Positions 812 to 18,549 of a DNA stretch of 32,000 bases are shown piece after piece. The notes under the pieces are model-generated. The model saw only the letters and a program-made list of their open reading frames with translations. It was not told the DNA's origin and searched no databases. Origin of the DNA: Candidatus Saccharimonadota bacterium (lineage in GTDB: Bacteria > Patescibacteriota > Saccharimonadia > Saccharimonadales > UBA4665); NCBI GenBank assembly GCA_016699955.1, contig CP064993.1:360001-392000 (forward strand), written 5' to 3'. Within the stretch, counting starts at the first letter, position 1. Each line of letters begins with the position of its first letter. The translations under genes and the position numbers were made by a program.

Positions 812-1425
812 TGTAGTTCCACTCTTTTAAGCCTTTTAAAGTAGTTGAAGCACTTACGCTGGAAATCTGCGTCCCCGACTGCTAACACCTCATCGATAAG
901 CAAGATGTCTGCCTTCGCCCGGGTTGCCATGGAGAACGCTAGCCGAACCTGCATGCCAGATGAATAGTTCTTGAGTTTCTGATCCATGAACTCTTCGAGT
1001 TCAGCAAAAGATACAATATCGTCAAACATGGCATCAATCTCTTTGCGGGAGAAGCCCATGAGCGCCCCATTTAGATACACATTGTCGCGGCCAGTCAGTT
1101 CGGGGTTAAACCCAACACCAAGCTCGATGAATGGCACCAAGCGCCCTGCAACCCCCACTTTTCCATCAGTTGGCTGGTAAATACCAGCTATCATCTTGAG
1201 CAGTGTGCTTTTGCCGCTTCCATTGCGACCAACTATGCCGAAGAACTCGCCCTCGTGAACATCAAACGAGACGTCTTTGAGCGCATGCTGTGTTGCCGCC
1301 TTACGCCCTCGCAGTGTCAGCAACGGATGTATGAAAAAGCTTTTTATGGAAGTTACTCGCTCGTGCGGTAAACGAAAATCTTTTGAAAGGTTTGAAACCG
1401 ATACAACAATCTTATTACCCATCAA
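808..1425 (-). CDS. ABC transporter ATP-binding protein, N-terminal fragment (Walker A, signature, Walker B)
   Basis: 205-aa ORF with GRNGSGKST, YSSGMQVRLAFS and LLIDEVLAVGD. It ends prematurely at TGA (808-810), before the H-loop. Confidence 0.8.
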   Translation of the reverse strand: MMGNKIVVSVSNLSKDFRLPHERVTSIKSFFIHPLLTLRGRKAATQHALKDVSFDVHEGEFFGIVGRNGSGKSTLLKMIAGIYQPTDGKVGVAGRLVPFIELGVGFNPELTGRDNVYLNGALMGFSRKEIDAMFDDIVSFAELEEFMDQKLKNYSSGMQVRLAFSMATRAKADILLIDEVLAVGDADFQRKCFNYFKRLKRVELQ

Positions 1426-2234
1426 ACATTCTCCGCAAAACTAGGTGACTGCCGCTTAAAGTACGTGACCGCAAGTATTAGTAGTAGTACGACGATGGTA
1501 GGCGGTATATAAGCATAGGCGCCACCGCCGAAGGCTTGCCACGTCGTGGTTGTTGATGGTGCTATGAGAGCATACCTTGCATCCTGAATAATTTGAGCGA
1601 GTGGATTAAGCAGCGCAACTTTTGCTGCGTCCTGGGAGTACTTGGCTATAAGTGAAATCGGATAGAGGATTGGCGTTGCATAAAAACCAACCTGTAGTAG
1701 AAGCTCCCAAATGTAGTTTGCGTCACGCAGTTTTACATATAACGCGGCCAAGAAAAACGCTACTGACAGAGAGAGAACAAACAGCTCGATTGCAACGGGG
1801 ATAATTAGGACTGCTCGAGGCGCCAACTCTACACCATTCACCGCGATGAGTACTCCAACTATGACAAGGTTAATGGCGAGGTTTATAAGAGCAGAGAATG
1901 AACCTGCGATGACGATGACGTAGCGCGGGAATGAAAGTTTTCGCATAAGGTCTCCCTTCCCGACGATTGCGGACATGCCGTTCATAGTTACTTCAGTGAA
2001 ATAGTTCCAAAGAACAATACCCAGCAACAGGGCGACTGCGAAATGCGGCTCATCGGCACCAAACTTCAAAAAATGTATGAAGATGACGTACATAATCGCA
2101 AAAAGCGCGAGTGGTTTCAGTACCGTCCACACGTAGCCTAAAACAGATCCTTTGTAGCGAATCTTGAAGTCGGTCCTCACAAGCTCACGCAATAAGATAG
2201 CGGGGTAACGGTACCGTTCGATAAAAGGCTTCAT
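1422..2234 (-). CDS. ABC-2 type polysaccharide/teichoic-acid export permease (Wzm/TagG-like)
   Basis: 270 aa with about 6 hydrophobic helices and an N-terminal LVRTDFKIRYKGSVLGYVWTVLKP motif typical of ABC-2 permeases. Its stop overlaps the ATPase start by 4 bp. Confidence 0.85.
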   Translation of the reverse strand: MKPFIERYRYPAILLRELVRTDFKIRYKGSVLGYVWTVLKPLALFAIMYVIFIHFLKFGADEPHFAVALLLGIVLWNYFTEVTMNGMSAIVGKGDLMRKLSFPRYVIVIAGSFSALINLAINLVIVGVLIAVNGVELAPRAVLIIPVAIELFVLSLSVAFFLAALYVKLRDANYIWELLLQVGFYATPILYPISLIAKYSQDAAKVALLNPLAQIIQDARYALIAPSTTTTWQAFGGGAYAYIPPTIVVLLLILAVTYFKRQSPSFAENV

Positions 2235-2335: not shown

Positions 2336-3268
2336 ATGAGTAAAGTTATCGTTACCGGAGCGAACGGGTTTGTGGGCAACCATCTCGTACTGGAACTGGC
2401 GCAAGCTGGCTATGAGGTTATTGGTGTTGGCGGTCCACGCGTTCCGGGCATGAAAGATCCTGAGGGTCTTACGCACTACATAGTGGCGGACCTAAACAAC
2501 CCAGAAGAGGTAAGTCAGATAGACTTTACTGGCGTAACTGGCCTCATTCACCTTGCTGGCATGGCAGCGGTTGGTCCATCCTTTGACGACCCGCTTACCT
2601 ACGTTTCGGTCAACGTCGGGCTTCAGGTGCATTTATTCGAAGAGGCTGCGAAGCAGGGTGCAAAACCGAAATTTGTCGTTATCAGCAGCGGTGCGCTGTA
2701 TGACCCGAACGCTTCTCTGCCACTCACAGAAGAGTCTCACGTACTCCCGTCGTCACCTTACGCCGTCAGTAAGATTGGTCAGGAGCAAATGGGTCTTTAC
2801 TACCATTTGCGCGGGTTTGAGGTGGTCATCGCTCGCCCATTCAACCATATTGGCCCAGGGCAGAACCTAGGCTTCATCGTACCTGACCTGACCAAGCAAG
2901 TGATTGACGTGGAGCGTGGTGAGACCGATAGAGTCTTGGCTGGGAACATGGATGCAAAACGGGACTACACAGATGTACGAGATATCGCACGAGCTTATAG
3001 GCTCATGTTGGAACATGGTAGAACCGGCGAGACATACAACATTTGTTCCGGTACTAGCTACAGCGGACAGGAAATGCTTGACCTGATTCTTACGGCTGCC
3101 GATTCACATGCGGTCGTAGAGAATGACCCTACGCGCATGCGTCCCTCTGATACGCCCGACATTTACGGTAGCCACGAAAAACTAACTGCCGATACCGGCT
3201 GGCAGCCAGAAATCCCTCTGGAAGTCACCCTCGCCGACGTTGTCGCCGATTGGCGCAGCCGAGACTAG
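2336..3268 (+). CDS. rmd: GDP-4-dehydro-6-deoxy-D-mannose reductase (Rmd-like NAD-dependent epimerase/dehydratase)
   Basis: Has the Rossmann motif VTGANGFVGNHL and the catalytic YAVSK. ARPFNHIGPGQ, NICSG, DPTRMRPSD and TGWQPEI match my recollection of Rmd-type reductases. gmd lies in the same locus. Confidence 0.7.
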   Translation: MSKVIVTGANGFVGNHLVLELAQAGYEVIGVGGPRVPGMKDPEGLTHYIVADLNNPEEVSQIDFTGVTGLIHLAGMAAVGPSFDDPLTYVSVNVGLQVHLFEEAAKQGAKPKFVVISSGALYDPNASLPLTEESHVLPSSPYAVSKIGQEQMGLYYHLRGFEVVIARPFNHIGPGQNLGFIVPDLTKQVIDVERGETDRVLAGNMDAKRDYTDVRDIARAYRLMLEHGRTGETYNICSGTSYSGQEMLDLILTAADSHAVVENDPTRMRPSDTPDIYGSHEKLTADTGWQPEIPLEVTLADVVADWRSRD

Positions 3269-3289
3269 CCTAGACATTAGGGGTCATTC

Positions 3290-3317
3290 TTGACTTTTAG
3301 TACTTTTTGTTTATAAT
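3290..3317 (+). promoter_or_regulatory. Sigma70-like promoter TTGACT-16nt-TATAAT ending 8 nt before the ATG at 3326
   Basis: TTGACT at 3290-3295, TATAAT at 3312-3317, ATG at 3326-3328, and no SD in the 8-nt gap. Confidence 0.5.
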
Positions 3318-3325
3318 ATATCGTC

Positions 3326-5494
3326 ATGGCTCACCCTGTTGGAAACACTCCTGATCGACCTCCCGTCGTTGATGGCGGTAGCTTTGCTATAACCCACTTA
3401 TCAACCGATCCAGAAGGTTATAACGTATCACTTACCGGTGTTGGGCGTACTGCTCTTTTAGGGGACAGTCTTGCTATCTTGGGTGACCCGGAGATTCCGA
3501 AAAAGGTAAGAGCTGCGGTTTGGGAGGAAATGCGGTTTGCTAAACTGCCCCTGCTTGCATATGTTGCGGAGAAACGCCTTTCGGCACATCAAGCTGAACA
3601 AACTGGAGACAGCCAAGCTGTACAACGGATTCGAGAAAACATTCAACAGGTTATAGGCTCAGGCGATTACGCCACTCAAAGGTTTCAGTATGTGGCGGGG
3701 CAAGGGCTTGGTAAGAAAATCGGTTTTCGCAACCTTATGGAGGACCCAGATAACAGCAACCTGCTTACCGGCTCAGCCCAGCTTGTCCCTTTCTATATGT
3801 ACAATCGCTTCTCGTCTCCTATATATCACAGGGAGGCGCTTGGTCATTTAAGTGAAGCTGCTGCCGTAACGCTGGCGCTCGTCACTGCTGATAACCGTTT
3901 AATCCTGCAACATCGTGCTGTATCACACCGAAATCTTTTGGACGGTAAAATGAGTGGGGGTAATGCCAGCTACAATGATATCCCAGGAGCAAGTGCTGCG
4001 GGGTGGATAGATGCCGCCCCCAAGAAGCACGGTGAAAAAGATGGCACCCCGCCGGACGTCACCACCGAGAGTCTCTTGGGTAGCGTCACGAAGGAGATGG
4101 AGGAAGAATTAGGTCTTGATAAAAAGGAGCTCACGGGTATACGTCTCGTTGCCATGGCACATGATAATATTAAGCCACACACTGAGGTACTTTACCTAGC
4201 AAAGACTCGTCTGACTTTCGAGGAAGTCAGAAAGCACTCCGAGAGTTCGAATAAAAATAAAGGTCTTGCCCCCGAAGATCTTGACGAGAAGTTTTTCGAT
4301 ATCGCAGCCTCGCCGGAGGCTATCAAGACACTACTTTCAGAGGTTCACTGCCCTCTGCCCCCAACCCATGCTGCCGCTTTTCTCGCATGCGGATATAGCT
4401 TGATGCTCGAAAAAGGTAATAAAGCTGCAGCTGACAAGTGGTTGAATGAGGCGAAGATAGGTGTTGCGCAGAATTATACAACGATGGATGCAATGGTAGC
4501 AAAGTATTACAAAACCTTCCCGGGCGCGAATAAGCTTGTCCCTGAGCGTATGTGGAACAAGCACGTTGCTGACAGAAATCTTGACGCTTATACTCCGGCT
4601 TATACACCGAGCGAACAAGGGTTGCCTGACCTAGATGACGAGCTGGTTCGAGTCGGATTAGTACCCGAGGAACGTCGAGTAGTCGACACCGCATACCTAT
4701 TCGATGTTGACGGCGTGCTAACCAACCCTACGACAAAGATTGTCGATAGAGAGGCTATCTTCACGGGGCTGATTGACCGCCTCCAGGCTGGCCTGCCGGT
4801 CGCATTTAACACTGGTCGTTCAACAAAGTGGGTTGTCGACAACGTAGTCCAGCCAATGCTGGAAAGAGCTAGCGACCCGGGCATCCTCCAAAACGCAATC
4901 ATCGTCGGTGAGAAGGGCGCCTCCTGGGCAACGTTTGGCGAAGACGGTACCCCCTTATATGGCATAGCCGATTCGCTAAGTTTGCCAGATACTTTAAGCC
5001 AAGCCGTCGATGAGTTAGCAAGCAAGTATGCCGACACTATGGGTAACCTAGACCCTAAGCAGACGATGTTCTCCGTCGAGATGCTTGATGGTGCCAATAT
5101 CGATGAGTTCCATGTGGTACAAGCTGTCTTTGCGTCTGAGCTTCAGGCCCTACTAGATTCACATCCTGAGGGAGCTATGTTCCGAGTTGATAAAACAGCG
5201 ATTGCAACTGACGTTGAGAGCCGCTACGTTGGCAAGGCACTGGGAGCTGACCGCTTTCTTGAATTTCTCCAAACCCGAGACTTGAAAGCCAAACATTATG
5301 TCGCATTCGGCGATAGCCCTTCCGACCTCGCCATGGCTGAAGAGTTGGCTCGACGGAGCCAGAGCGTAGAGATGGTCTACGTTGGTAATCCTGCAGATAT
5401 AGGTGACGCGCGTACCTTACGCTACGCCGTTAGTCTTCTAGCCGGCAATACGGCAGCAACCGCGAACTTTCTACAGGACGAAAACCACCGTTAG
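3326..5494 (+). CDS. 722-aa fusion protein: unknown N-terminal region + Nudix-like domain + C-terminal HAD-IIB-type phosphatase domain
   Basis: Degenerate Nudix box E-x7-KEMEEELGL (ESLLGSVTKEMEEELGL). HAD motif I is FDVDGVLTNP, motif II is FNTGRS and motif IV is FGDSPSDLAMAEE, with a large cap between motifs II and III. Confidence 0.6.
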   Translation: MAHPVGNTPDRPPVVDGGSFAITHLSTDPEGYNVSLTGVGRTALLGDSLAILGDPEIPKKVRAAVWEEMRFAKLPLLAYVAEKRLSAHQAEQTGDSQAVQRIRENIQQVIGSGDYATQRFQYVAGQGLGKKIGFRNLMEDPDNSNLLTGSAQLVPFYMYNRFSSPIYHREALGHLSEAAAVTLALVTADNRLILQHRAVSHRNLLDGKMSGGNASYNDIPGASAAGWIDAAPKKHGEKDGTPPDVTTESLLGSVTKEMEEELGLDKKELTGIRLVAMAHDNIKPHTEVLYLAKTRLTFEEVRKHSESSNKNKGLAPEDLDEKFFDIAASPEAIKTLLSEVHCPLPPTHAAAFLACGYSLMLEKGNKAAADKWLNEAKIGVAQNYTTMDAMVAKYYKTFPGANKLVPERMWNKHVADRNLDAYTPAYTPSEQGLPDLDDELVRVGLVPEERRVVDTAYLFDVDGVLTNPTTKIVDREAIFTGLIDRLQAGLPVAFNTGRSTKWVVDNVVQPMLERASDPGILQNAIIVGEKGASWATFGEDGTPLYGIADSLSLPDTLSQAVDELASKYADTMGNLDPKQTMFSVEMLDGANIDEFHVVQAVFASELQALLDSHPEGAMFRVDKTAIATDVESRYVGKALGADRFLEFLQTRDLKAKHYVAFGDSPSDLAMAEELARRSQSVEMVYVGNPADIGDARTLRYAVSLLAGNTAATANFLQDENHR

Positions 5495-5502
5495 GTCAAG
5501 GT

Positions 5503-6540
5503 TCAGTCGGATTCGAGTTCTAGGTCATGCTCAACCATAAGCGTTACAAGGCCGGGAAAGTCGACGGCGCGCTTCCAGCCAAGGACGGTTTCGGCTTTGG
5601 TTGGGTTGCCAAGTAAGATGTCCACCTCAGCGGGACGGTAAAATTCTGGGTTTACTTTTACGCGTACCAGACCTTCCTCGTCAACACCTTCTGTTTTTTC
5701 GCCCTCACCTCTCCAGGTGAGATTCATGCCAACTTCGGCAAATGCCAGTTCACAAAAATCGCGGATTGTATGGGTCTGACCGGTCGCAAGTACATAATCG
5801 TCCGGCTTATCCTGTTGGAGCATGCGCCACATACCCTCAACGTAGTCACCGGCATATCCCCAATCACGCTTACTATCGAGATTGCCAAGCTCCAAATATT
5901 CTTGGGTACCCTGCTTGATCCGTGCAACCGACAGGCTGATTTTGCGCGTTACAAACTCGGGTCCACGGCGTTCGCCTTCGTGGTTGAAAAGTATGCCACA
6001 ACTTGCATGCATGCCGTAACTTTCACGATAGTTTTTAGTAATCCAGTGACCATAAAGCTTTGCGACACCATAAGGGCTACGTGGATGAAAGACTGAGTCT
6101 TCGTCATACCCTTTGCCCGGGCGGTTATAGTCAAGACCGCCAAACATTTCAGAAGTAGAAGCCTGATAAAAGCGTGTTGTGTTTTCGAGACCACTTAGAC
6201 GGATTGCTTCAAGCACATTTAGAACACCTTTGCCCGTCACGTCACACGTAAGAATTGGGTCGCGGAATGAGTAGCCTACGTGACTGATGGCCGCAAGGTT
6301 ATACACTTCGTCTGGTTTAATACTCTGAACCGCACGAGTCAGCGCAGAAAGATCAAGCAAGTCGGCCATGACAAGCTCGGCATATGGCATTTCTGCTTTT
6401 AGCTTTTGGTAGCGTGGATGGCTTGCCTCCATTTGGCCGCGAACAACTCCGTATACTTCGTAGCCTTTTTCGTGTAGTAATTTTGCAAGATGTCCGCCGT
6501 CTTGCCCGGCCATGCCCGTTAAAAGCGCTTTCTTCGCCAT
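5503..6540 (-). CDS. gmd: GDP-mannose 4,6-dehydratase
   Basis: LTGMAGQDGGHLAKLL, FYQASTSEMFG, SPYGVAKLYGHWITKNYRESYGMHA and GILFNHEGERRGPEFVTRKI are hallmark Gmd blocks. A GAGGAG SD lies upstream of the ATG. Confidence 0.93.
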   Translation of the reverse strand: MAKKALLTGMAGQDGGHLAKLLHEKGYEVYGVVRGQMEASHPRYQKLKAEMPYAELVMADLLDLSALTRAVQSIKPDEVYNLAAISHVGYSFRDPILTCDVTGKGVLNVLEAIRLSGLENTTRFYQASTSEMFGGLDYNRPGKGYDEDSVFHPRSPYGVAKLYGHWITKNYRESYGMHASCGILFNHEGERRGPEFVTRKISLSVARIKQGTQEYLELGNLDSKRDWGYAGDYVEGMWRMLQQDKPDDYVLATGQTHTIRDFCELAFAEVGMNLTWRGEGEKTEGVDEEGLVRVKVNPEFYRPAEVDILLGNPTKAETVLGWKRAVDFPGLVTLMVEHDLELESD

Positions 6541-6788
6541 ACTGTCTCAGCTCCTCTCATTAAATTCTATAAAAAGTATACCACTCCCTTAGGGTTGATG
6601 GTACGTATGCCTCGGCGTAGTTTATGCTCTGCCTTCATAGAACCCTCGCTGTCTTCGGGTTCGTCCAGGAGCAAGCCAGAAGGCGGTTTCTCTTCTAGGC
6701 GAGGAACTTATCTCCATAGACGAAAGAAAAGTGACTTATAGCCGGTCACGGTGAGTCTGGGGCGGCGGGAGTTTTTAGGCAAGTCGAG

Positions 6789-6794
6789 TATACT
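6789..6794 (+). promoter_or_regulatory. -10-like TATACT 7 nt upstream of the GT4 ATG (candidate leaderless promoter)
   Basis: TATACT at 6789-6794 and ATG at 6802, with no SD. No convincing -35 was seen. Confidence 0.35.
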
Positions 6795-6801
6795 TGAGTG
6801 T

Positions 6802-7893
6802 ATGAGAATCGTCATAGATGCGCGTGAGTTGCGTACCACAACTGGGCGTTACGTTGAGCGCCTGCTCCATTATTTGCAGCAGCTAGACACTCACAACGAC
6901 TACACGGTGCTACTCAAACCAACTGATATGAGTGGCTGGCAACCAATCAGTGAGCGTTTTACGCCGCTAGCATGCCCGCACAAAGAATTCACGTTTGCCG
7001 AGCAGACCGGTTTGTTGCGACAAATTAACGAGCTGCATCCTGACCTGGTTCATTTCCCCATGGTTCAGCAGCCAGTGTTGTATGGTGGTCTAGTTGTTAC
7101 GACAATGAACGATTTAACGACCACGCGTTTTCGCAATCCTTCAAAAAATGTAGTTGTTTTTTGGCTGAAACAACGTGTGTACGTATGGGTGAATAAGCGC
7201 GTCGCGCGTCGCTCAAAGGCACTTATCTCTTATACACATTTTGTGCAACAAGATGTGGCTGCCTTTGCAGGAATATCCCCCGACAAATTTACTGTTGTTC
7301 CGCTTGCGGCCGATGCTATCTTGGATAGCCCCGAGACCGTTCCTGAGCTTAGTGATACGCAGTACGTTATGTACACAGGAAAACCCATGCCACATAAAAA
7401 TTTGGGGAGGTTGATTGACGCGTTTGTGTTGCTGCAAAAAGTCCACCCAGAGCTGCGCCTCGTGCTGGTCGGGAAGAAAGATGGCAACTATGCTCGACAT
7501 GAAGAGCGGGTAAGGGCAGAGGGTATTCGTAATGTTGTGTTTACTGGTTTTGTGAGTGAGGGGCAGCTGCGGTGGTTGTACGAAAACTGCGCCGCCTACG
7601 TTGTTCCTAGCTTGTCTGAAGGCTTCGGGCTGCCTGGGCTAGAGGCAATGATGCACGGTGCGCCAGTCGTCAGCAGCAATGCAACATGTTTGCCGGAGGT
7701 GTACGGCGACGCAGCGATCTATTTCGACCCGCTAGACGTCGCAGATATGGGCACAAAAATTAGTCCTGTAATAGATAATGAAGCGCTACGAAGCAATTTA
7801 ATTTTGCGCGGCAGCGCACAAGCCAAAAAATATTCTTGGCGCCGCACCGCCGAACAAACCCTTGCCGTGTATGAAAAAGCCCTGAAGCGATAA
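6802..7893 (+). CDS. Glycosyltransferase family 4 (GT-B, WbpX/Y/Z-like)
   Basis: The C-terminal EGFGLPGLEAMMHGAPVVSSNATCLPEVYGDAAIYFDP is the GT4 E-x7-E region. I prefer the start at MRIVIDAREL (ATG 6802) to the GTG at 6751 in the ORF track. Confidence 0.8.
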   Translation: MRIVIDARELRTTTGRYVERLLHYLQQLDTHNDYTVLLKPTDMSGWQPISERFTPLACPHKEFTFAEQTGLLRQINELHPDLVHFPMVQQPVLYGGLVVTTMNDLTTTRFRNPSKNVVVFWLKQRVYVWVNKRVARRSKALISYTHFVQQDVAAFAGISPDKFTVVPLAADAILDSPETVPELSDTQYVMYTGKPMPHKNLGRLIDAFVLLQKVHPELRLVLVGKKDGNYARHEERVRAEGIRNVVFTGFVSEGQLRWLYENCAAYVVPSLSEGFGLPGLEAMMHGAPVVSSNATCLPEVYGDAAIYFDPLDVADMGTKISPVIDNEALRSNLILRGSAQAKKYSWRRTAEQTLAVYEKALKR

Positions 7894-7895
7894 CT

Positions 7896-8504
7896 TTAGT
7901 AATATTCTCTTAGTGCCGGGCCAGAGCAGCTAATCTCAATAGTCAAGACTACCTTACCGTCAATAGATACTCTATTGTGATCTTTATCTTCATCATACCT
8001 GTAGTGCACGCCACATCTTATGGATTCGGTCTCGTATATCCGTGACTTAATATAATTTTCTGATATATATTTCTTGTTGCTTTGCGTGTTGTCGCCAAGA
8101 AAACGCCACTTAATGACGGCTTGCGCGTTATCTGCGCCCATAATTATGCCTTTTGTATCATTTTCAGAGGTAGGAAGATATTTTATTGTCGTTGACATTG
8201 TACAGCTCAGGCTTCCATTACTGAACTTTGCTGAGCTGTACCTACAGTATTTTCTTGTTTCTTTAGTGCTTGGGGCGAGTTTGGCGGCTTCATCGACGAA
8301 GGTGGCTATTTGTTTTTCTGCATTTTTGTACATTGTCTTTTCTTTGTATATCAGAGCTTGGTTGACTCCAAAAAGGAGGGTTATGACTAGGGCTAGTGCA
8401 AGGGAGAGTTTACCTATCTTACCGAGACTTTTATACCAGTTCTGTATCTTGGAGATATTTTTCCCTGGTTTATTAGGAAGCTTGGCCTGTTTTATTTTTG
8501 GCAT
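7896..8504 (-). CDS. Small N-terminally membrane-anchored 4-Cys protein, paralog A (unknown function)
   Basis: 202 aa from MPKIKQAKLPNK. It has a Lys-rich tail, then the TM helix LSLALALVITLLFGV, then an ectodomain with 4 Cys, ending IEISCSGPALREYY. It is a paralog of 9728-10330. The longer N-terminus in the track runs into a duplicated GT4 remnant. Confidence 0.6.
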   Translation of the reverse strand: MPKIKQAKLPNKPGKNISKIQNWYKSLGKIGKLSLALALVITLLFGVNQALIYKEKTMYKNAEKQIATFVDEAAKLAPSTKETRKYCRYSSAKFSNGSLSCTMSTTIKYLPTSENDTKGIIMGADNAQAVIKWRFLGDNTQSNKKYISENYIKSRIYETESIRCGVHYRYDEDKDHNRVSIDGKVVLTIEISCSGPALREYY

Positions 8505-8519
8505 GAGCTTATTGTAACA
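8261..8519. repeat. Direct repeat copy 1 (5' part of paralog A plus its start region)
   Basis: Aligns without indels to 10087-10345 (offset 1826) at roughly 90% identity by eye, including a 63-bp perfect run starting at 8269. The central gene parts show no visible nucleotide similarity. Confidence 0.85.
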
Positions 8520-8550
8520 ACCTAGTAGCTCGTAGCCTATGGGGTGAGGG

Positions 8551-8616
8551 TACATTACTGGCAACGCACCGCTGAATAAGCCCCGTGTTGTTTGTGAACA
8601 AGCCCTGAAGTGATCG
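8551..8616 (+). pseudogene. Degenerate duplicated remnant of the GT4 gene 3' end
   Basis: tacattactggcaacgcaccgctgaataagcc..ccgtgttg..gaacaagccctgaagtgatcg aligns to 7831-7893 (tattcttggcgccgcaccgccgaacaaaccc..gccgtgtatgaaaaagccctgaagcgataa). It is followed by the same ctttagta as in copy 1. Confidence 0.6.
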
Positions 8617-8624
8617 CTTTAGTA
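8617..8624. repeat. Target-site duplication, left copy (CTTTAGTA)
   Basis: An identical 8-mer directly flanks both IS ends (8617-8624 and 9726-9733). Removing the IS plus one copy recreates the sequence seen at the paralogous site 7894-7910. Confidence 0.85.
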
Positions 8625-8644
8625 GGCTTAATAACAAAATCTAG
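8625..8644. repeat. IS terminal inverted repeat (left)
   Basis: Exact reverse complement of 9706-9725. It contains the transposase stop codon. Confidence 0.9.
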
Positions 8645-9618
8645 TGTTTTTTCACCCCTGTATCCTCAGAGAATAAACTACAAAGCATCGTAAAAGTGAG
8701 CTGTTTTGAGGCTCTACGATGCTTGATTAGCTTGTCTTTCCAGACACCAAACCTGCCATCTAACGGGCTGGTAGTATTAGCTATTTTCTTGCCTGTTTGG
8801 CATGCGTATTCTTGCAAGTAATCTGCTTGGTAGGTGAATAGGTACGGCAGATTTCTGACGAGGCTAAAGTAGGCTCGTCTGGTACGTTCGTGTGCCCATC
8901 TTTTGGTGACTGGATCCTTCTGTTTGAGCCACTTACCGTGTTTACCGTACCAACCAGCCAGAGCGTCCTCAAACGTCGGCTCGTCCGTTTGGCTGAGCGT
9001 CAAAGCAATAGCTCGTAGCTCAATGTTCTGCGTCAGTCTCGGTTTTTTTGTCAGGCATTGGGTGATGGTCATCAGCTGATGGAACTGGCAATGCTGGACT
9101 GGTATACCTCTCGCTTCAAGCATGTTCCGCACACCGCGTCTACCATCAATTGTTACGGCGATGATACTGTAACCCATAGCTTCAATCGTATCTGTTGAAA
9201 TCTCGTAATCTATGGTTCGCTCGGTGCCCTCAACGACTGCATAATACAGCACGGTGTTTTCACCTTCTTTCTGCTTTGCATATGGATCAATGACTACTAA
9301 TATACCCCAGCTGCCAAAGTAGGTTACATCAATGATGACGGCTACTGTGCGGGGCACTTGAGTGATGAGGGTTGGGGTGTAGGCGTGCAATCGGCTACGA
9401 ATACTGCCTTCGCTTGCTTTGTATTCGCACGCCAAGCTCCGTACGCTGCGACCATCAAAAGCATACTTGTGCCATAGAACATTGAGTCGTCTTCCCGGAC
9501 GTCGAATACTCGTCCATGTGCGGCTACACGCCACGCAGCGATAACGCTGGCGACCATTCTGTAGCCCATGTTTGGTCACGTTGGTACAATTAAAAAACGG
9601 ACAGCTCTTTCGAGTCAT
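8641..9618 (-). CDS. IS transposase (zinc-ribbon + DDE-type)
   Basis: The N-terminal CPFFNCTNVTKHGLQNGRQRYRCVACSRTW is a Cys4 zinc ribbon like IS1/IS1595-family transposases. AAGGAG lies 8 nt upstream of the ATG at 9618, which I prefer to the track start at 9645. Confidence 0.7.
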   Translation of the reverse strand: MTRKSCPFFNCTNVTKHGLQNGRQRYRCVACSRTWTSIRRPGRRLNVLWHKYAFDGRSVRSLACEYKASEGSIRSRLHAYTPTLITQVPRTVAVIIDVTYFGSWGILVVIDPYAKQKEGENTVLYYAVVEGTERTIDYEISTDTIEAMGYSIIAVTIDGRRGVRNMLEARGIPVQHCQFHQLMTITQCLTKKPRLTQNIELRAIALTLSQTDEPTFEDALAGWYGKHGKWLKQKDPVTKRWAHERTRRAYFSLVRNLPYLFTYQADYLQEYACQTGKKIANTTSPLDGRFGVWKDKLIKHRRASKQLTFTMLCSLFSEDTGVKKH

Positions 9619-9705
9619 CTTCGCTACTCCTTGTTTAGTTTGCACTTACAAGAATAACGAGAATTGATGACAATGAAATCTGTCCGTATTAAGCTTTAGC
9701 AACAA

Positions 9706-9725
9706 CTAGATTTTGTTATTAAGCC
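9706..9725. repeat. IS terminal inverted repeat (right)
   Basis: Exact reverse complement of 8625-8644. Confidence 0.9.
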
Positions 9726-9733
9726 CTTTAGTA
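9726..9733. repeat. Target-site duplication, right copy (CTTTAGTA)
   Basis: Identical to 8617-8624. It includes the TAA stop (9728-9730) of paralog B. Confidence 0.85.
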
Positions 9734-10330
9734 ATATTCTCTTTGGGCCGGGCCGGAGCAGCTAATCTCAATAATGTAGTCTCTCGTTACTGAGGCCTGC
9801 CCACTAGAAACTTCTTCGACATACGGCTGACGATAATATATTCCGCACGTTAAATTATTGAATCTATAAATCGTTTTAGCAACGGTTCCTGGGGTACCTT
9901 CCGAGGACTGTTCTGTGAACTCTTTTGTCCAATTTGCTATCGCTTCATGTTTTTGTACTGCCGCCATAACAGACTTGAAGCTATCTAGGGAAATGCCTTG
10001 AAATATTAATTTCTCTTCCACTACGCATATTAGCGCGCCGTCATCAAACTTTTCGGAAATACGGGAACAGTATTTGTTTTTTAACCTTTTAGCACTTGGG
10101 GCGAGTTTGGCGGCTTCATCGACGAAGGTGGCTATTTGTTTTTCTGCATTTTTGTACGTTGTCTTTTCTTTGTATATCAGAGCTTGGCCGACTCCGAAAA
10201 GAAGGCTTATGATTAGGGCTAGTGCAAGGGTTAGTTTAACTATCTTACTGAGACTTTTATACCAGTTCTGTATCTTGGATATAGTATTCGGGGTTTTATT
10301 AGGAAGCTTGGCCGGTTTTAATTTTGGCAT
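9728..10330 (-). CDS. Small N-terminally membrane-anchored 4-Cys protein, paralog B (unknown function)
   Basis: 200 aa from MPKLKPAKLPNK. The first ~80 aa are nearly identical to paralog A, the middle is diverged, and 4 Cys plus the C-terminal IEISCSGPAQREYY are conserved. The track's N-terminal extension overlaps the upstream gene. Confidence 0.6.
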   Translation of the reverse strand: MPKLKPAKLPNKTPNTISKIQNWYKSLSKIVKLTLALALIISLLFGVGQALIYKEKTTYKNAEKQIATFVDEAAKLAPSAKRLKNKYCSRISEKFDDGALICVVEEKLIFQGISLDSFKSVMAAVQKHEAIANWTKEFTEQSSEGTPGTVAKTIYRFNNLTCGIYYRQPYVEEVSSGQASVTRDYIIEISCSGPAQREYY

Positions 10331-10345
10331 GAGCTTATTGTAACA
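10087..10345. repeat. Direct repeat copy 2 (5' part of paralog B plus its start region)
   Basis: See 8261-8519. Confidence 0.85.
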
Positions 10346-10352
10346 GTATTTG

Positions 10353-13340
10353 CTATGTTTTTTGGCGGCGCAAGACCACGAGTAATAAAACCAGCCCGGC
10401 GGCAACAAAACCGGCCAAAGCATATGCAAGCGCGGATTTACTTTTTGTGGTTGTGCTGTCTGCTGTTTTTGTCAGCTTGGCGGGCATTTTAGTGGTGCCA
10501 CTCAGTACCATGGGTTCAGGTTGGGTAGTGCTGTCCTCGGTCGATGTCGGAGCACGATAAGGAGTCAAGGCATATCCGTAGTTTGGCGGCAGACTTCCGG
10601 CTATACGCATTGCAGTGGCAAGCTGGTTATTCGGTGGACTAGTTGGGGTGTTTGACGGTAGGGCCCCGCTGTCCTTTTTTGTCTGGGATGAGTTATTTTC
10701 CTCTGGGCTATTTACTTGGGGTGGTACGAAAAGCGCAATAATACCCTGCTGGTTTGATTCGTTATTGTCTTCGGTAGAGTCAAATGAAATCGGGCTCTCT
10801 GGCGGAAGGTCGGGTATAAGATCTGCAACAACCGCTACACCGCGTAGTTCTCCGTCACAGGCATCGTCAACTCTATCTCCGTCTACATCGACTCCTGACG
10901 AGCTAACGAGCTGGCAAGCTTCCTGGTTGTTTTTTACACCATCGCCGTCAAAATCTTCTGCCTCTTCTGCCACAAAAACTACTTCTCGCAAATCTACAGG
11001 CGTGCCGTCTGCGGCGATACCGTACACATCAAACGTATGAAATCCGACCAACGGATCGCTTGGGACTTCAAAGGTTATGGCGGTGTTTTCATCATACGCC
11101 CCCTCAAATAGTGTAACTGGCTCCGAACGCAGAACTCCCTTGACTGGAGCTCCTTGTTTAAGTACCCCTTTCGGAATATTGGTTGTGTACTTACTATCTT
11201 TTTGTAGAACTTTTACGCCACCGTCCGACCACTTGATCGCTTCAGTGTGGCGTTGCTGCTCAGGTGCGTGCACAACGTTTTTAAGGAGCGCGCTCGTATA
11301 GTCCAGGCTTGGTTTGTTATTGGCGCGAGGTGCTGGCATAGGTGCGGTAAGGTTGGTTGTGCTCGAGAGTACTTTCTGCGCGAGCAGTTTGTGGCCAAAT
11401 ATCGTGGGGTGATAGCTTTCGTTAGCAATACCTAGCGTATGTGAATATGTTTTCCCGGCAGCATGAGCCTGCATTGTCACCCCTTTATCGTCACCAGCAG
11501 TTAGGCCATTTACACCCGCCGAGTCTTTGGGAGCCTCACAAAGACGATATCCATTCAGGGCGCTTTCTGTGTCGACATAGTACACGCCAGCTTCTGCCGC
11601 AGCCCGTTTAATAACAGAGTTTAGGTAGATTATAAGCTGCGCTCCAAACTTAACCTCTGCAGCGTTGAAGTGCACATTTGCGCCGCAATTTCCGCCCTCC
11701 TTAAAGATTTGGGGATAGCCTACCACGTACACGCGCGCACCGCCACTCTCTGTGCTAACGCTTTTGTATGTTTTTACCAAACGGTCATATTGGCCAAGTA
11801 TTTGCTGCATAAGCTGAACGCGGTCTTCGTAATACTGGTAGCACGTACCGGCAATATCACCGGCAACACAGGTAGTTAGAATCTTTGCAAATGCGATGTC
11901 ATTGCCTCCGACGGAGAGGAGAACGGTGCGAGGTTTGTATTCGCGAGCGAAGATAGTTTGTTGGGCGTAACCAGGAGAAAAGCTTTTAAATATTAGTTCT
12001 TTTTCGTTGTCCAGCCTATCCTGCCAGGTTTTATCGTCTTGACCCAAATACTCACTTTCTTTACTTATACGAGTTTCCGGGTTTATTTCGGGGTCCCCCG
12101 CGGCCATTGTCACGTCAAGCATTTTTGCCCCAGAGCAAGCGACGGAGCGACCGTAAGGAAATTGTTTTGCTCCAATGCGGTAGGGGTAAGAGTAGTAGGA
12201 GACGTGGCATTTGTTTTGCTTCGTGTCGGTGCCGGCAAAAAATGTGCCGGTTGCACCTTCGCCTGAAATATACGAGTCACCCATACCCAAAAGCCCTACG
12301 TATTCTCGCGGGGTTTCTTTGGGCATGGTTACGCTGTAGCGGGCCACTTTAAAACTTGTCGTACTCGTGCGGTCATAAACGGTGTCAAAGGTGAGTGTGT
12401 TTTTGTCTAAAAACCGAATGCGGCGGGGGTACTCGGCCGTCGGTAAGACATCACGAAGGCCACGGGTATTCCCGGTGCGATACTGGCCACTCCACAGATC
12501 TTTATACTCACAGTCATTATGCGCAACAAGCGCGTCGTTGAGATCATATTGGTCACGGCAACTTTCTGTATCGTAGACCCGTAGTACTGGGTGTTTTGTT
12601 CCGTCATTTTCGGTTTTTGTAAACGCAATTGCTAAATATCTCCCATCATCTGTAATGGCAGTGTTGTTCGTTTTCGTAAAGTTATCTACGGAAGGCGCGT
12701 ACGTTTCAATATCCCAGGCCAGATATTTGAGCTTTTTGTTGTTGATATCAAATCGCACAAGCCCACGACTCCCCGCCACTGCAGAGAACCATTGGCCGTT
12801 ATTGGAATACGCCAAATCGCCGCTAATCGATGCCAGGACTGTGTTATTAGCCAGTGGTCTTACGGCATAAGAAAACAGCCCTTTATACGTGTAGTATGTC
12901 CCGAGGTTATTGTTAATATAATTTAGGGCGCTCGGATTGTACGTTCCGAGGGCTATCGTTGCGCCCGAAGCCGTATAATATCTCGTAAATATCAGCTCGG
13001 GGTGATTGGGGACGCTAGGCTGAACAAAACCACCGGGGTTAACTTCGTATCGGTACGCGCCGTTTGGCCCATCAATAAGTTCTTGGTCGCCGGTTGCAAG
13101 GGTGCCTATGGGGGTCTTGTACCCACATCGTGGGGCTGGATAGCCGCTTGAGGGCGGCAAAATCGTGCAATCTACGCTCGTACTCAGTGGCTCAGTGTTT
13201 GCTGGGAGCTCTTTGGTTTTTGTAATAAGTGGCTCGGTGTTACTAAGCCACTCTGGACGACTTGGTGACACAGCGGACACAAAACCACCCAAAAAAAGAA
13301 GTAAGCTGAGACAGACTGCCGCCGAGTAATAACGCTTCAT
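10353..13340 (-). CDS. Large secreted SGNH/GDSL-family hydrolase with thrombospondin-type-3-like Asp-rich repeats, Pro/Ser/Thr-rich stalk and C-terminal membrane anchor
   Basis: Signal peptide MKRYYSAAVCLSLLLFLGGFVSAVSP, taking the ATG at 13340. SGNH block I is LGMGDSYISGEG, block III is SVGGNDIAF and the block V-like motif is NESYHPTIFGH. Also has DFDGDGVKNN...VDVDGDRVDDACD and the C-terminal LAYALAGFVAAGLVLLLVVLRRQKT. Confidence 0.7.
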   Translation of the reverse strand: MKRYYSAAVCLSLLLFLGGFVSAVSPSRPEWLSNTEPLITKTKELPANTEPLSTSVDCTILPPSSGYPAPRCGYKTPIGTLATGDQELIDGPNGAYRYEVNPGGFVQPSVPNHPELIFTRYYTASGATIALGTYNPSALNYINNNLGTYYTYKGLFSYAVRPLANNTVLASISGDLAYSNNGQWFSAVAGSRGLVRFDINNKKLKYLAWDIETYAPSVDNFTKTNNTAITDDGRYLAIAFTKTENDGTKHPVLRVYDTESCRDQYDLNDALVAHNDCEYKDLWSGQYRTGNTRGLRDVLPTAEYPRRIRFLDKNTLTFDTVYDRTSTTSFKVARYSVTMPKETPREYVGLLGMGDSYISGEGATGTFFAGTDTKQNKCHVSYYSYPYRIGAKQFPYGRSVACSGAKMLDVTMAAGDPEINPETRISKESEYLGQDDKTWQDRLDNEKELIFKSFSPGYAQQTIFAREYKPRTVLLSVGGNDIAFAKILTTCVAGDIAGTCYQYYEDRVQLMQQILGQYDRLVKTYKSVSTESGGARVYVVGYPQIFKEGGNCGANVHFNAAEVKFGAQLIIYLNSVIKRAAAEAGVYYVDTESALNGYRLCEAPKDSAGVNGLTAGDDKGVTMQAHAAGKTYSHTLGIANESYHPTIFGHKLLAQKVLSSTTNLTAPMPAPRANNKPSLDYTSALLKNVVHAPEQQRHTEAIKWSDGGVKVLQKDSKYTTNIPKGVLKQGAPVKGVLRSEPVTLFEGAYDENTAITFEVPSDPLVGFHTFDVYGIAADGTPVDLREVVFVAEEAEDFDGDGVKNNQEACQLVSSSGVDVDGDRVDDACDGELRGVAVVADLIPDLPPESPISFDSTEDNNESNQQGIIALFVPPQVNSPEENNSSQTKKDSGALPSNTPTSPPNNQLATAMRIAGSLPPNYGYALTPYRAPTSTEDSTTQPEPMVLSGTTKMPAKLTKTADSTTTKSKSALAYALAGFVAAGLVLLLVVLRRQKT

Positions 13341-13365
13341 TAGTTCTCTCAATTATTTGAGCATT

Positions 13366-13464: not shown

Positions 13465-13938
13465 CTACGCTGCGGGGCTAATGACGATGTGGCGGTCGCG
13501 GCCTTCGCCAACTGAATCACTCACCAGTCCGGCCTCTGAAGCGACCCTGTGTACAGTACGACGGTCAGCGGCATTCATCGGCTTTACTTCGTAGGGCTCA
13601 CCGGTTTCTTGCACATGCTTGACCCAGTCTTCGGCAGCGCTCGCTAGCCGATCGGCACGTTGTTTTTTGTACTCGGCTACGTCGACATTGACACGGCACA
13701 TGGCAAAGTTTTGGTTCTTGAGAGCGCTACTGACAAGAAACTGCATGGAGCGCATGGTCTCTCCGCGTTGACCAATCAAGAAGCCGTTGAGGTGCGTAGA
13801 GGGAATGTTCAATTCAATTACTTCATTGTCCTCGGTAGTGGCATAGACGTCAGTATTTAGCCCAAAAAATGAAAGTATATCCTCTAGGTATTTTTTTGCG
13901 TACTGAATTGCTGCTTCAACATCTTCGTTCATAGTCAC
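13465..13938 (-). CDS. jag: Jag/KhpB-type RNA-binding protein (KH + R3H domains)
   Basis: IGQRGETMRSMQFL (KH-like), the C-terminal R3H segment MNAADRRTVHRVASEAGLVSDSVGEGRDRHIVISP, and the conserved position after yidC. Confidence 0.85.
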   Translation of the reverse strand: MTMNEDVEAAIQYAKKYLEDILSFFGLNTDVYATTEDNEVIELNIPSTHLNGFLIGQRGETMRSMQFLVSSALKNQNFAMCRVNVDVAEYKKQRADRLASAAEDWVKHVQETGEPYEVKPMNAADRRTVHRVASEAGLVSDSVGEGRDRHIVISPAA

Positions 13939-14936
13939 CTCCGTTTCTTTTTAGCTTTTTTGGAGGCCTTGCTGCGTATTTGTTTTGTTGAGGTTGCGAC
14001 TACTGCTTCAGGGGTTGAGGATATGGTGACCTTACTGCCGTTTTTTGTGGTACGAACCGGTTTATTGTCTTGGCTGGGCTTCGCTTTTTTGGTTGGAATT
14101 TTATCATCAGCTGACTCGGCCGCTTCAACAAGCCGGTCGGCGTCGTCGTTAAGTGCTCTACGCTGTTGCAAGTACGCAACCAGCCCGCCAACAAACCAGT
14201 AAAGGCTGAGTGCGGCTGCAAGGTTAATCGTAAAGAAAAATACCATAAATGGAATAACGTACACCATGCCACGCCCGACGGCAGCGCTCACCTCGGCCTG
14301 ATCGGCCTGCTGTCCTTCACCGGCAGCCCTGAGTATGTGCCGCAGCTTTCGCGCCTCTTTGTCCGACGGCATTAGCTGGCGACTCGTCAGGAACTGGATA
14401 CCGGCACTGAGGAACACCAAGAGCAGCGCCGGGAAATATATGCCCGTTTTGCTGACAGCAGCTTTCGAAAGGTCAACTATCCCAAAGAGTGAGTTGTCAA
14501 ATGCTTTGATGTTTTCTGCGAGATGCTGCATCCATGGTAGATGCTGAAATGGTGCATAGGCGAACTGTACGATTTGGTTGGGGTCTTTAATGACCTTAAT
14601 TAGCCCAATATAGAGGCCGATTAGTACAACCATTTGCACAATAAGTGTTGGGAACATACCAAACGGGTTAACACCGCGTTCTTTGTACAACTCCATCATC
14701 ATGCGGCCTTCAAGTTGGCGGTCGCCTTTAGCCTCTTTCTTAATCCGCTTTAGTTCTGGTTGAAGTTGGCGCGTAATTTTAGTTTGACGCAGTTGTTTTT
14801 TGACAAGCGGCCACATAAGAAGCCGGATGACAACGGTAAACAAAATAATTGCCAAACCAAAATTGTGCCCAGGTATAAGCGCGTAGATGAGTACGAGCAA
14901 ATTAAAGATTGGTTGAACAACGAACTCAGTAAACAT
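13935..14936 (-). CDS. yidC: YidC/Oxa1-family membrane protein insertase
   Basis: Multi-pass protein with PLVKKQLRQTKITRQLQPELKRIKKEAKGD and MMELYKERGVNPFG motifs and a Lys-rich C-terminal tail. The rnpA-yidC-jag synteny is present. Confidence 0.9.
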   Translation of the reverse strand: MFTEFVVQPIFNLLVLIYALIPGHNFGLAIILFTVVIRLLMWPLVKKQLRQTKITRQLQPELKRIKKEAKGDRQLEGRMMMELYKERGVNPFGMFPTLIVQMVVLIGLYIGLIKVIKDPNQIVQFAYAPFQHLPWMQHLAENIKAFDNSLFGIVDLSKAAVSKTGIYFPALLLVFLSAGIQFLTSRQLMPSDKEARKLRHILRAAGEGQQADQAEVSAAVGRGMVYVIPFMVFFFTINLAAALSLYWFVGGLVAYLQQRRALNDDADRLVEAAESADDKIPTKKAKPSQDNKPVRTTKNGSKVTISSTPEAVVATSTKQIRSKASKKAKKKRR

Positions 14937-15323
14937 TTACTCCCCTTTGTCTTCTACTATACCACGATTCGTCTTCGGTCGACCACTAGCTTGCGCTTTT
15001 GACAACAAATTGGCTAACTCGCGCTTGAGAGACTTTGCTGACATGGTGGCAAGCGACGCGTCAAACACTGTTATAAGTAGCTCGACTCCTTTGAGGTGTA
15101 CGCCGTAATCCGTGCGAAGCAGCTCGTAAAGACGGCGGCGAATGCGGTTGCGTACAACGGCAGATTTATGCACTTTTTTGCTAACAACTACAGCAGCACG
15201 AAATAACTGGTCGGTCTCGGTGCGGTAGCGCAACCCGAGTAGTCTTGTTCGGGAGCCCGCTCCATGTTTATACAGCCGTTGGATATCCCGGCTGCCTCGA
15301 AAGCGATGATTACTAGCAAGCAC
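14937..15323 (-). CDS. rnpA: Ribonuclease P protein component
   Basis: Small basic protein (RFRGSRDIQRLYKHG, VVVSKKVHKSAVVRNRIRRRL) located between rpmH and yidC. Confidence 0.85.
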   Translation of the reverse strand: MLASNHRFRGSRDIQRLYKHGAGSRTRLLGLRYRTETDQLFRAAVVVSKKVHKSAVVRNRIRRRLYELLRTDYGVHLKGVELLITVFDASLATMSAKSLKRELANLLSKAQASGRPKTNRGIVEDKGE

Positions 15324-15339
15324 TGCCCTGTGCTCCGAC

Positions 15340-15477
15340 CTAGTGCGTTAGCCGCGTACGGCCTTTGATACGACGTCGTTGCAAGACGGCGCGTCCGGCT
15401 TTGGTTGCCATGCGCTTCATAAAGCCATGCACTTTTGCGCGGTGGCGTTTTTTTGGCTGATAGGTTCGTTTTGGCAT
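15340..15477 (-). CDS. rpmH: 50S ribosomal protein L34 (below the ORF-track length cutoff)
   Basis: Manual translation of the minus strand gives [45 protein letters not shown] (45 aa). ATG is at 15477-15475 and TAG at 15342-15340. Confidence 0.92.
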
Positions 15478-15747
15478 ATGCTTTTTCCCTTTATTCCTTT
15501 ACCATACAGTATACCATGGAGCGATTTGCCGCCCAGATCACTGGCTATATTTGCTATTCGCGTCATAGTATAGCAAAGTTATCCCCCCTTTCCCAGTATT
15601 ATCCACAGAATCTAAGGTGTTAACACGCCCTGTGGATAAGTTGTTCTCTTTTGAAGCGTTTTATATTTGACAAAATAGTTGTAGAAAATGCTGTGGAAAA
15701 CTAGGTAGGAGTTAGCGTATAGTTATACACAGAAATTGGAGTGTAAC
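15478..15747. other. oriC part 1 (rpmH-dnaA spacer) with DnaA boxes
   Basis: TTATCCACA at 15599-15607 (perfect) and TGTGGATAA at 15631-15639 (perfect, inverted). TGTGGAAAA at 15692-15700, TTATACACA at 15723-15731 and the weaker TTATCCCCC at 15579-15587. Confidence 0.75.
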
Positions 15748-17148: not shown

Positions 17149-17433
17149 TGTAAGCCGGGTGTTGTGGAGTAATGGGGGTTTGTTTGTGGAAAAAGGATGG
17201 GTTTTTGTTGGCTTTTTCCACCACTCACGATGTTTTGTTTTGGGGGTTGGGGACTTCTTACGTGTTTATACTCCTAGTGCCCCCTGCCGTGTGCACTGTG
17301 TTATCCCCCTCATTTTTTCGTATTTTCTCTCTGTTACGAGCGCGTTATCCCCTTCTTCCACAGGGCCTATAATAAGGGCTATTATTGGTAAAAATGAAAT
17401 TATTTATAATCAACTAAGTGGAAGGGTGTATTG
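17149..17433. other. oriC part 2 (dnaA-dnaN spacer): DnaA-box-like sites plus AT-rich candidate unwinding element
   Basis: Inverted pair GTGGAAAAAG (17186-17195) and CTTTTTCCAC (17212-17221). TTATCCCCC at 17301-17309 and TTATCCCCT at 17345-17353. AT-rich stretch ctataataagggctattattggtaaaaatgaaattatttataat at about 17367-17410. Confidence 0.6.
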
Positions 17434-18525: not shown

Positions 18526-18537
18526 ACGTAAGTCCAG

Positions 18538-18543
18538 TATACT
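18538..18543 (+). promoter_or_regulatory. -10-like TATACT 6 nt upstream of the recF ATG (candidate leaderless promoter)
   Basis: TATACT at 18538-18543 and ATG at 18550, with no SD. Confidence 0.35.
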
Positions 18544-18549
18544 AACCGT

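Follow-up and report, generated by a model that had tools for sequence, protein, structure and literature searches.

What does a bacterium with a small genome do with a protein that joins two hydrolase-like modules and is encoded between two genes of activated-sugar synthesis? The locus lies in a 32,000-nucleotide stretch of the Candidatus Saccharimonadota contig CP064993.1 (positions 360,001 to 392,000, forward strand; hereafter the window), in a single-contig genome of 1.21 Mb from an order whose genomes measure 0.6-1.3 Mb. The gene in question, P0001, is an uninterrupted open reading frame (ORF) of 722 amino acids on the + strand (3326-5494) with an ATG start and a TAG stop. The stop codon of rmd precedes its ATG by 57 bp, and the stop codon of the convergent gmd lies 8 bp from its own. 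The original prediction had described a Nudix-like and HAD-IIB phosphatase fusion wedged between these two genes. The ORF, its position and all the quoted motifs are indeed there: KEMEEELGL at residue 256 with E248-x7 ahead of it, FDVDGVLTNP at residue 459, FNTGRS at residue 494 and FGDSPSDLAMAEE at residue 661. Based on structure models, we propose that P0001 is a cytoplasmic bifunctional hydrolase that would dismantle nucleoside diphosphate (NDP) sugars in two steps, with an accessory role in pool control or clean-up, and we hold this reading with moderate confidence. What is new is a conserved, undescribed and presumably bifunctional architecture built from known folds.

The N-terminal half

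Structure models were made with AlphaFold2, using an alignment of 40 sequences as input. The full-length model of P0001 has a mean predicted local distance difference test (pLDDT) score of 89.5 and a predicted template modelling (pTM) score of 0.86, and the model of the N-terminal half reaches 92.2 and 0.90. In the VIA structure search, which covers 48,161 representative chains and is independent of Foldseek, the best match of residues 13-360 is human NUDT22 over its entire extent (5lor_A, chain -2 to 287), with Z 21.5 and a root-mean-square deviation of 3.5 Å, 266 of 290 residues being aligned. The second-best match of the N-terminal half stands at Z 12.6, and all matches with Z of at least 8 have the Nudix fold. 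Foldseek also places NUDT22 first (E 4e-11), followed by NUDT12 (E 1.7e-5). Residues 13-360 are therefore predicted to adopt the NUDT22-type two-domain fold, in which a beta-rich N-terminal domain packs on the Nudix domain, and the Nudix module that had been suspected in the central region is found at residues ~127-360 of the model. The first ~170 amino acids, in which nothing had been recognised, indeed have no match in Pfam or NCBIfam, but the models assign them to the N-terminal domain of the NUDT22 type and to a helical insert (residues 46-123). This insert is the family's most variable stretch in both length and sequence, with poorly conserved columns and many indels. The match to NUDT22 spans 348 model residues, of which 266 are aligned, and the unaligned ones would correspond to the insert.

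The Nudix box of P0001 is laid out as P220-G-x-S223-x2-G226-x2-D229, a loop of ~18 residues and the helix K256-E257-x2-E260-E261-x-G263-L264. Among the 40 homologues, E257 and E261 are kept in all, E260 and G263 in 39 each, and K256 in 35 (with R in four others). The box had been called degenerate, with Lys in place of the usual Arg. Set beside the canonical G-x5-E-x7-R-E-U-x-E-E-x-G-U, its upstream glutamate (E248) is present in only 12 of the 40 homologues, and the loop that follows the invariant P220-G-x-S-x2-G-x2-D229 exceeds the canonical one by ~18 residues; in the helix, K/R-E-x2-E-E-x-G-L is invariant or nearly so. Residues 361-450 form a family-specific helical extension and linker with the invariant residues P406-E407-R408, R417 and Q431-G432-L433. 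We assign this extension to the N-terminal half because the split forms of the family stop at about residue 446; it accompanies the N-terminal half in all the split forms seen.

At the level of sequence, the kinship is much harder to find. The Pfam scan gave no match of PF00293 to P0001 at E <= 1; this model is marginal in four of the 40 homologues (best E 0.0079), and a six-frame search of the genome with it returned 15 other Nudix genes, P0001 not being among them. Likewise, neither NUDT22 nor any other solved Nudix protein matched the N-terminal half at E <= 1 when all PDB sequences were searched with phmmer and with the 40-sequence profile. Compared with NUDT22 (5lor, 5lf9, 5lou, 5r50), P0001 shares the whole two-domain fold, the acidic residues of the Nudix helix and, as far as the models can tell, the predicted chemistry, in which an NDP-sugar would yield a nucleoside monophosphate (NMP) and a sugar-1-phosphate. 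It differs in being bacterial, in having no detectable sequence similarity to the human protein, and in carrying in addition the helical insert of ~80 residues, the conserved extension of ~90 residues and a covalently attached HAD domain.

The C-terminal half

The highest-scoring structures for residues 451-722 are trehalose-6-phosphate phosphatases (5dxi, Z 22.1; 5dx9, 21.8; 6upb, 21.5). They are followed by 4bnd, a phosphoglucomutase resembling phosphomannomutases (PMMs), at Z 20.6, and then by many Cof-type sugar phosphatases. Overall, the Z values of the HAD half against sugar-phosphate phosphatases and mutases range from 17 to 22, and 218-244 residues can be aligned with C2B-cap enzymes at Z 20-22. 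The four HAD motifs are represented by D460-x-D462 (I), T496 (II), K637 (III) and D663/D667 (IV). D460, D462, T/S496, K637 and D663 are kept in all 40 homologues and D667 in 39, so that the HAD domain, which had been described as complete and with a C2-type cap, does not look like a dead one; in the model its cap is of the C2B type, inserted between motifs II and III. Sequence models register this domain faintly. The scores of P0001 remain below the cut-offs of TIGR01484 (E 4e-6, 27.0 bits against 41.8), PF08282 (18.3 bits against 20.9) and PF21141 (16.9 bits against 26.7), and these sub-threshold HAD-IIB signals are all that Pfam and NCBIfam report for the protein, with no Nudix domain.

Because the catalytic residues of both modules are kept across the 40 homologues, both look catalytically competent as judged from sequence. 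We take the conserved residues to comprise the metal ligands of the two superfamilies, along with their nucleophile and acid-base residues. P0001 has the Rossmannoid core, the C2B cap and the four catalytic motifs in common with HAD-IIB phosphatases and mutases (OtsB 5dxi/6upb; 4bnd), and it departs from them in scoring below the family cut-offs and in having a Nudix partner, not a glycosyltransferase. An architectural parallel concerns the fusions of trehalose-6-phosphate synthase and phosphatase (OtsA-OtsB), in which an enzyme acting on an NDP-sugar is likewise followed by a HAD-IIB phosphatase acting on the phosphorylated product. There, however, a GT20 glycosyltransferase comes first and the pathway serves synthesis, whereas the first module of P0001 is a predicted hydrolase and the net reaction would be degradative. 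The idea that P0001 supplies the cell's trehalose-6-phosphate phosphatase was rejected: a separate OtsA-OtsB fusion of 726 amino acids (L071 712-2892; G000:C1:483546-485726, - strand) fills this role, and there is no BLAST similarity between the two proteins. Given the OtsA-OtsB fusion, this small-genome host appears able to make trehalose.

Family breadth and module combinations

P0001 belongs to a sizeable family: among the 90% clusters there are 48 homologues at E <= 3e-78, mostly of 680-750 amino acids, nearly all unnamed and mostly 35-50% identical to P0001 over near-full length. An exhaustive search of the 50% representatives gave 616 matches at E <= 0.001, 174 of which reach E <= 1e-30. 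With 48 close homologues and 616 matches, the ORF is not a chance reading frame. The 616 matches are of three kinds, namely full-length proteins, proteins with the N-terminal half only (~350-470 amino acids, ending at about query residue 446) and proteins with the HAD domain only (~260-300 amino acids). Additionally, three proteins (P0077, P0097, P0142) have the reverse order, with the HAD domain first and the NUDT22-like half second, and a cluster of Bacillota proteins in the ESM Atlas links a structural look-alike of the N-terminal half to another HAD type (PF00702/HAD_2). Such fusion, in both orders and with more than one HAD subtype, is, by analogy, a classical sign of consecutive steps on one substrate. 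That the modules occur both as separate proteins (of ~430 amino acids for the N-terminal half and ~270 for the HAD domain) and as reverse-order fusions speaks for a joint function.

Across the phylum, in 401 sampled genomes searched at E <= 1e-20, the full-length form occurs in the source genome alone, the HAD domain alone in six genomes and a divergent protein of 747 amino acids in one. Some of the HAD-alone genes adjoin RmlD-like or DegT-type sugar-nucleotide enzymes. A pattern scan of the genome contigs gave no confirmed relative. In G005, the HAD-alone gene is preceded by an ORF of 445 amino acids, which was considered as a split N-terminal half and rejected because it encodes a class II tRNA synthetase. 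Two relatives of the HAD module, 37-40% identical to that of P0001, have other partners: P0161 is fused to a TIR domain and matches Thoeris/SAVED-type TIR models in PADLOC, and P0131 is fused to a PEP-utilising mobile domain.

Our literature search turned up no publication about bacterial NUDT22 relatives or about Nudix-HAD fusions that act on nucleotide sugars, and the family is uncharacterised. Neither Pfam nor NCBIfam sees the bacterial relatives of NUDT22; the P0001 family provides them with a defined architecture, a set of catalytic residues that is conserved and a plausible coupled reaction. In terms of annotation, several hundred 'hypothetical proteins' could receive names.

Proposed function and alternatives

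In the first step of the proposed reaction, the Nudix module (residues 13-450) would split the pyrophosphate bond of an NDP-sugar into NMP and sugar-1-phosphate, as its fold and conserved metal ligands suggest. In the second step, the HAD-IIB module (residues 451-722) would convert the sugar-1-phosphate into free sugar and phosphate, for which its intact motifs and sugar-phosphatase-type cap speak. Human NUDT22 carries out the first of these reactions on UDP-glucose (PMC10101856) and on UDP-galactose, in a Mg2+-dependent hydrolysis to UMP and hexose-1-phosphate. In the clade of P0001, the likeliest substrates would be GDP-hexoses of the GDP-D-rhamnose pathway (GDP-mannose, GDP-4-keto-6-deoxymannose or GDP-D-rhamnose), because its place between rmd and gmd is one of long standing in this lineage. 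We infer that a mutase cannot rescue a 6-deoxy-sugar-1-phosphate, which would explain why a phosphatase is attached. The role would be to control or clean up the pool of activated sugars and to recover the nucleotide. It would not be a required step of glycan synthesis, given that the rmd-gmd locus works without the fusion gene in most relatives.

A Nudix gene beside gmd has a precedent in Escherichia coli, where Gmm/WcaH (NudD) is the GDP-mannose mannosyl hydrolase of the colanic-acid cluster; enzymes of the NudK type are GDP-mannose pyrophosphatases. Gmm is a single-domain protein of ~160 amino acids that cuts at C1 of the sugar to give GDP and free sugar, and it has no attached phosphatase. 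It shares with P0001 the place beside gmd in a surface-glycan locus and, presumably, the control of a GDP-sugar pool. Its structural match to P0001 is weak (2i8t, Z 8.0; 2gt4, Foldseek E 1.3e-3) and far below that of NUDT22. The context is hence analogous, whereas fold, chemistry and architecture differ.

How firm is the link to rmd and gmd? Four metagenome loci (L012, L013, L014, L018) have the same gmd-fusion-rmd-wzm-wzt order as the window. Together with those of the window and of the relative G016, the fusion proteins linked to rmd/gmd are 42-46% identical to one another. In the maximum-likelihood tree, these six gmd-linked proteins form one group that requires one change (support 82/83). 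The sequences suggest that the placement between rmd and gmd may have happened once, after which it was kept through divergence to 42-46% identity and often lost. The adjacency to gmd that had been noted in the window thus holds for one clade (six loci), but it is not general for the family.

Several observations weigh against the proposed function. Both rmd and gmd are present in 15 of the 61 relatives searched, and the fusion is intact in just two of these 15 genomes (the source genome and G016, at the same position) and a remnant in a third (G023). In most of the others (G007, G008, G022, G029 and G035 among them), rmd and gmd abut convergently, 18-93 bp apart, without it. As the placement appears to be a single ancestral one, the linkage to gmd counts as one observation and not as six. 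Other, more distant full-length members adjoin ftsA/ftsZ, an integrase gene, comEC/comEA, histidine kinase genes or MgsA. Moreover, the nucleotide specificity cannot be read from the sequence, because similarity to NUDT22 or to any other solved Nudix protein is undetectable at this level and PF00293 is marginal. Finally, the modelled HAD fold by itself does not tell whether the module is a phosphatase, a phosphomutase or a nucleotidase.

Food for debate is whether the substrate is a sugar nucleotide at all. P0001 could act on a non-sugar NDP-X compound (ADP-ribose, an NAD-derived or a CDP-linked molecule), its position beside gmd being accidental, and thereby serve nucleotide salvage or the degradation of a signal; in that case, the substrate of the HAD half would be either the resulting product or the NMP. 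We consider this unlikely. Most family members lie outside sugar loci and the fusion is dispensable at the rmd-gmd locus, yet its linkage to rmd/gmd has outlasted the divergence of the proteins described above. The close HAD relative P0161 has a TIR domain as partner, but P0001 has no match among the PADLOC defence models. Inosine monophosphate nucleotidases occur among the structure matches of the HAD half (Z 16-17), whereas its cap is nearest to enzymes of disaccharide phosphates and hexose phosphates. In addition, the sole characterised protein of this fold, NUDT22, is a UDP-hexose hydrolase (PMC10101856).

An explanation with a still smaller chance, in our view an improbable one, keeps the first step and replaces the second: the HAD-IIB module would be a phosphomutase of the eukaryotic PMM type that converts hexose-1-phosphate to hexose-6-phosphate and so returns NDP-hexoses to central metabolism. 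PMMs and an atypical alpha-phosphoglucomutase are among the close structures (4bnd, Z 20.6; 8b5v, 3f9r and 6i5x, Z ~17), although the trehalose-6-phosphate phosphatases score slightly higher (Z 21-22). The one sequence-level match of P0001 in the PDB is to motif I of human PMM2 (E 0.04). However, the 6-deoxy sugars of the neighbouring pathway could not be used by a mutase, and the genome already has two alpha-D-phosphohexomutase genes. A biosynthetic role, in which the sugar would be freed from its nucleotide carrier in two steps to feed later glycan synthesis, has the same net chemistry as the one-step release by PseG/NeuC-type hydrolases but is very improbable, since Pfam named no free-sugar-using enzyme among the locus ORFs scanned (three of which have no match), the products that it did name are Wzm, Wzt, glycosyltransferases and a GDSL-type protein, and most relatives with the rmd-gmd-wzm-wzt locus run the pathway without the fusion gene.

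Returning to the two-step hydrolase, a broader and more tentative proposal, which we regard as doubtful but worth stating, is that ultra-small, nucleotide-scavenging bacteria possess a dedicated, hitherto undescribed two-step family in which a NUDT22-type Nudix module, covalently joined in either order to a HAD phosphatase, would edit or drain particular pools of activated sugars. Here, its task would be the GDP-6-deoxyhexose pool of the D-rhamnan pathway, from which the nucleotide would be regained and the dead-end sugar-1-phosphate destroyed. If so, this would add a new housekeeping principle to nucleotide-sugar metabolism and would give the bacterial relatives of NUDT22 their first physiological role. 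The two-step hydrolysis itself, if true, would show how small-genome episymbionts that live on scavenged nucleotides could regain NMP from activated sugars without leaving phosphate trapped in 6-deoxy-sugar-1-phosphates, and it would provide a compact enzyme for the analysis or degradation of NDP-sugars.

Genomic surroundings

The features of P0001 and of its neighbours are collected in Table 1. The closest solved relatives of the Rmd-like ORF are 2pk3 (E 3.6e-54) and 6x3b (E 4.6e-52), both GDP-6-deoxy-D-lyxo-4-hexulose reductases, and other short-chain dehydrogenase/reductase enzymes follow far behind. As read from sequence, rmd, gmd, wzm, the ABC ATPase, Wzt_C and GT4 genes make up a D-rhamnan-type ABC-transporter glycan locus. 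In the window, wzt consists of two ORFs that overlap by 4 nt (248-1425, - strand), whereas in the related loci L013 and L014 the same matches fall on one ORF each, of 395-412 amino acids; the split could be either a natural one with translational coupling or a frameshift. The possibility that the fusion stands in for missing genes of GDP-mannose supply was rejected, as genes for this supply are present (three of the NTP_transferase and two of the PGM/PMM type).

P0001 is likely a separate, nearly leaderless transcription unit. The candidate promoter ahead of it was called by consensus match alone; from the end of its -10 box to the ATG there are 8 nt, and no Shine-Dalgarno sequence precedes the ATG, which together point to a nearly leaderless transcript of its own.

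Table 1. Positions in the window of P0001, its predicted parts and neighbouring features.
Feature	Position	Strand	Basis or description
P0001, whole ORF	3326..5494	+	NUDT22-like Nudix module, helical extension, HAD-IIB module (predicted)
Residues 13-45, predicted first strands of NUDT22-type N-terminal domain	3362..3460	+	5lor_A alignment begins at residue 13; strands 20-25 and 32-38
Residues 46-123, predicted helical insert	3461..3694	+	Helices in both models
Residues 127-360, predicted remaining N-terminal domain and Nudix fold domain	3704..4405	+	NUDT22 Z 21.5; other matches are Nudix folds, Z <= 12.6
Residues 220-264, expanded Nudix box	3983..4117	+	Conservation counts, 40 homologues
Residues 361-450, family-specific helical extension and linker	4406..4675	+	Lies past the end of the NUDT22 alignment
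Residues 451-722, predicted HAD-IIB phosphatase-type domain, C2B cap	4676..5491	+	VIA; TIGR01484 below cut-off; motif counts
Candidate sigma-70-like promoter, TTGACT-16-TATAAT	3290..3317	+	Consensus match, 11/12 positions
rmd (GDP-4-keto-6-deoxy-D-mannose reductase type), upstream neighbour	2336..3268	+	Solved-structure relatives
gmd (GDP-mannose 4,6-dehydratase), convergent downstream neighbour	5503..6540	-	PF16363, 422 bits
wzm	1422..2234	-	Pfam; glycan ABC exporter, same locus
ABC ATPase ORF, 205 amino acids	808..1425	-	Pfam; glycan ABC exporter, same locus
Wzt_C carbohydrate-binding ORF, 187 amino acids	248..811	-	Pfam; glycan ABC exporter, same locus
GT4 glycosyltransferase of the locus	6751..7893	+	Pfam

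The remnant in G023 (gmd 91% identical) shows one course that loss of the fusion has taken. At this locus (L068, G023:C1:834000-841000; 2740-4346), the fusion has decayed to ~60 N-terminal codons and a 20-codon duplicate of the rmd tail beside gmd, and a gene for a 415-amino-acid protein of the Acyl_transf_3 (O-acyltransferase) type fills the gap ahead of an intact rmd. In two of the metagenome loci, canonical PF00293 Nudix genes of ~180-190 amino acids flank the fusion, on both sides in L012, and L013 also has a glycerophosphodiester phosphodiesterase gene by the fusion. These neighbours lie at 3994-4536 and 6797-7357 in L012 and at 9690-10268 and 8981-9733 in L013. Judging by these sequences, L012 and L013 hold a cluster of predicted nucleotide-diphosphate hydrolases between gmd and rmd.

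A gene for an MgsA-type AAA+ ATPase lies directly downstream of a fused member in L020 (3200-4393) and of a HAD-alone member in L027 (8819-10033, with a 4-nt overlap). In L036 and L037, an ORF of ~400 amino acids stands in the place that matches the MgsA-type gene of L020 and L027. On sequence grounds, this neighbour may represent recurrent synteny in another lineage.

Beyond the GT4 gene, the window contains on the - strand (7896-13352) ORFs of 222, 334 and 233 amino acids without a Pfam match and an ORF of 999 amino acids in which a GDSL-lipase/acylhydrolase domain is the sole match. All four lie in the interval from the GT4 gene to the origin region and may encode further glycan-modifying or surface proteins. 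Farther on (20893-26219, - strand), an ORF of 1086 amino acids without a Pfam match adjoins a gene for a 705-amino-acid protein that combines phage-tail-lysozyme and Amidase_3 domains. Adjoining the glycan locus at 13465-19614 are genes for a KH/R3H (Jag/KhpB-like) protein and YidC on the - strand, followed by dnaA, dnaN and recF on the + strand, which together form the origin-region gene set of the chromosome.

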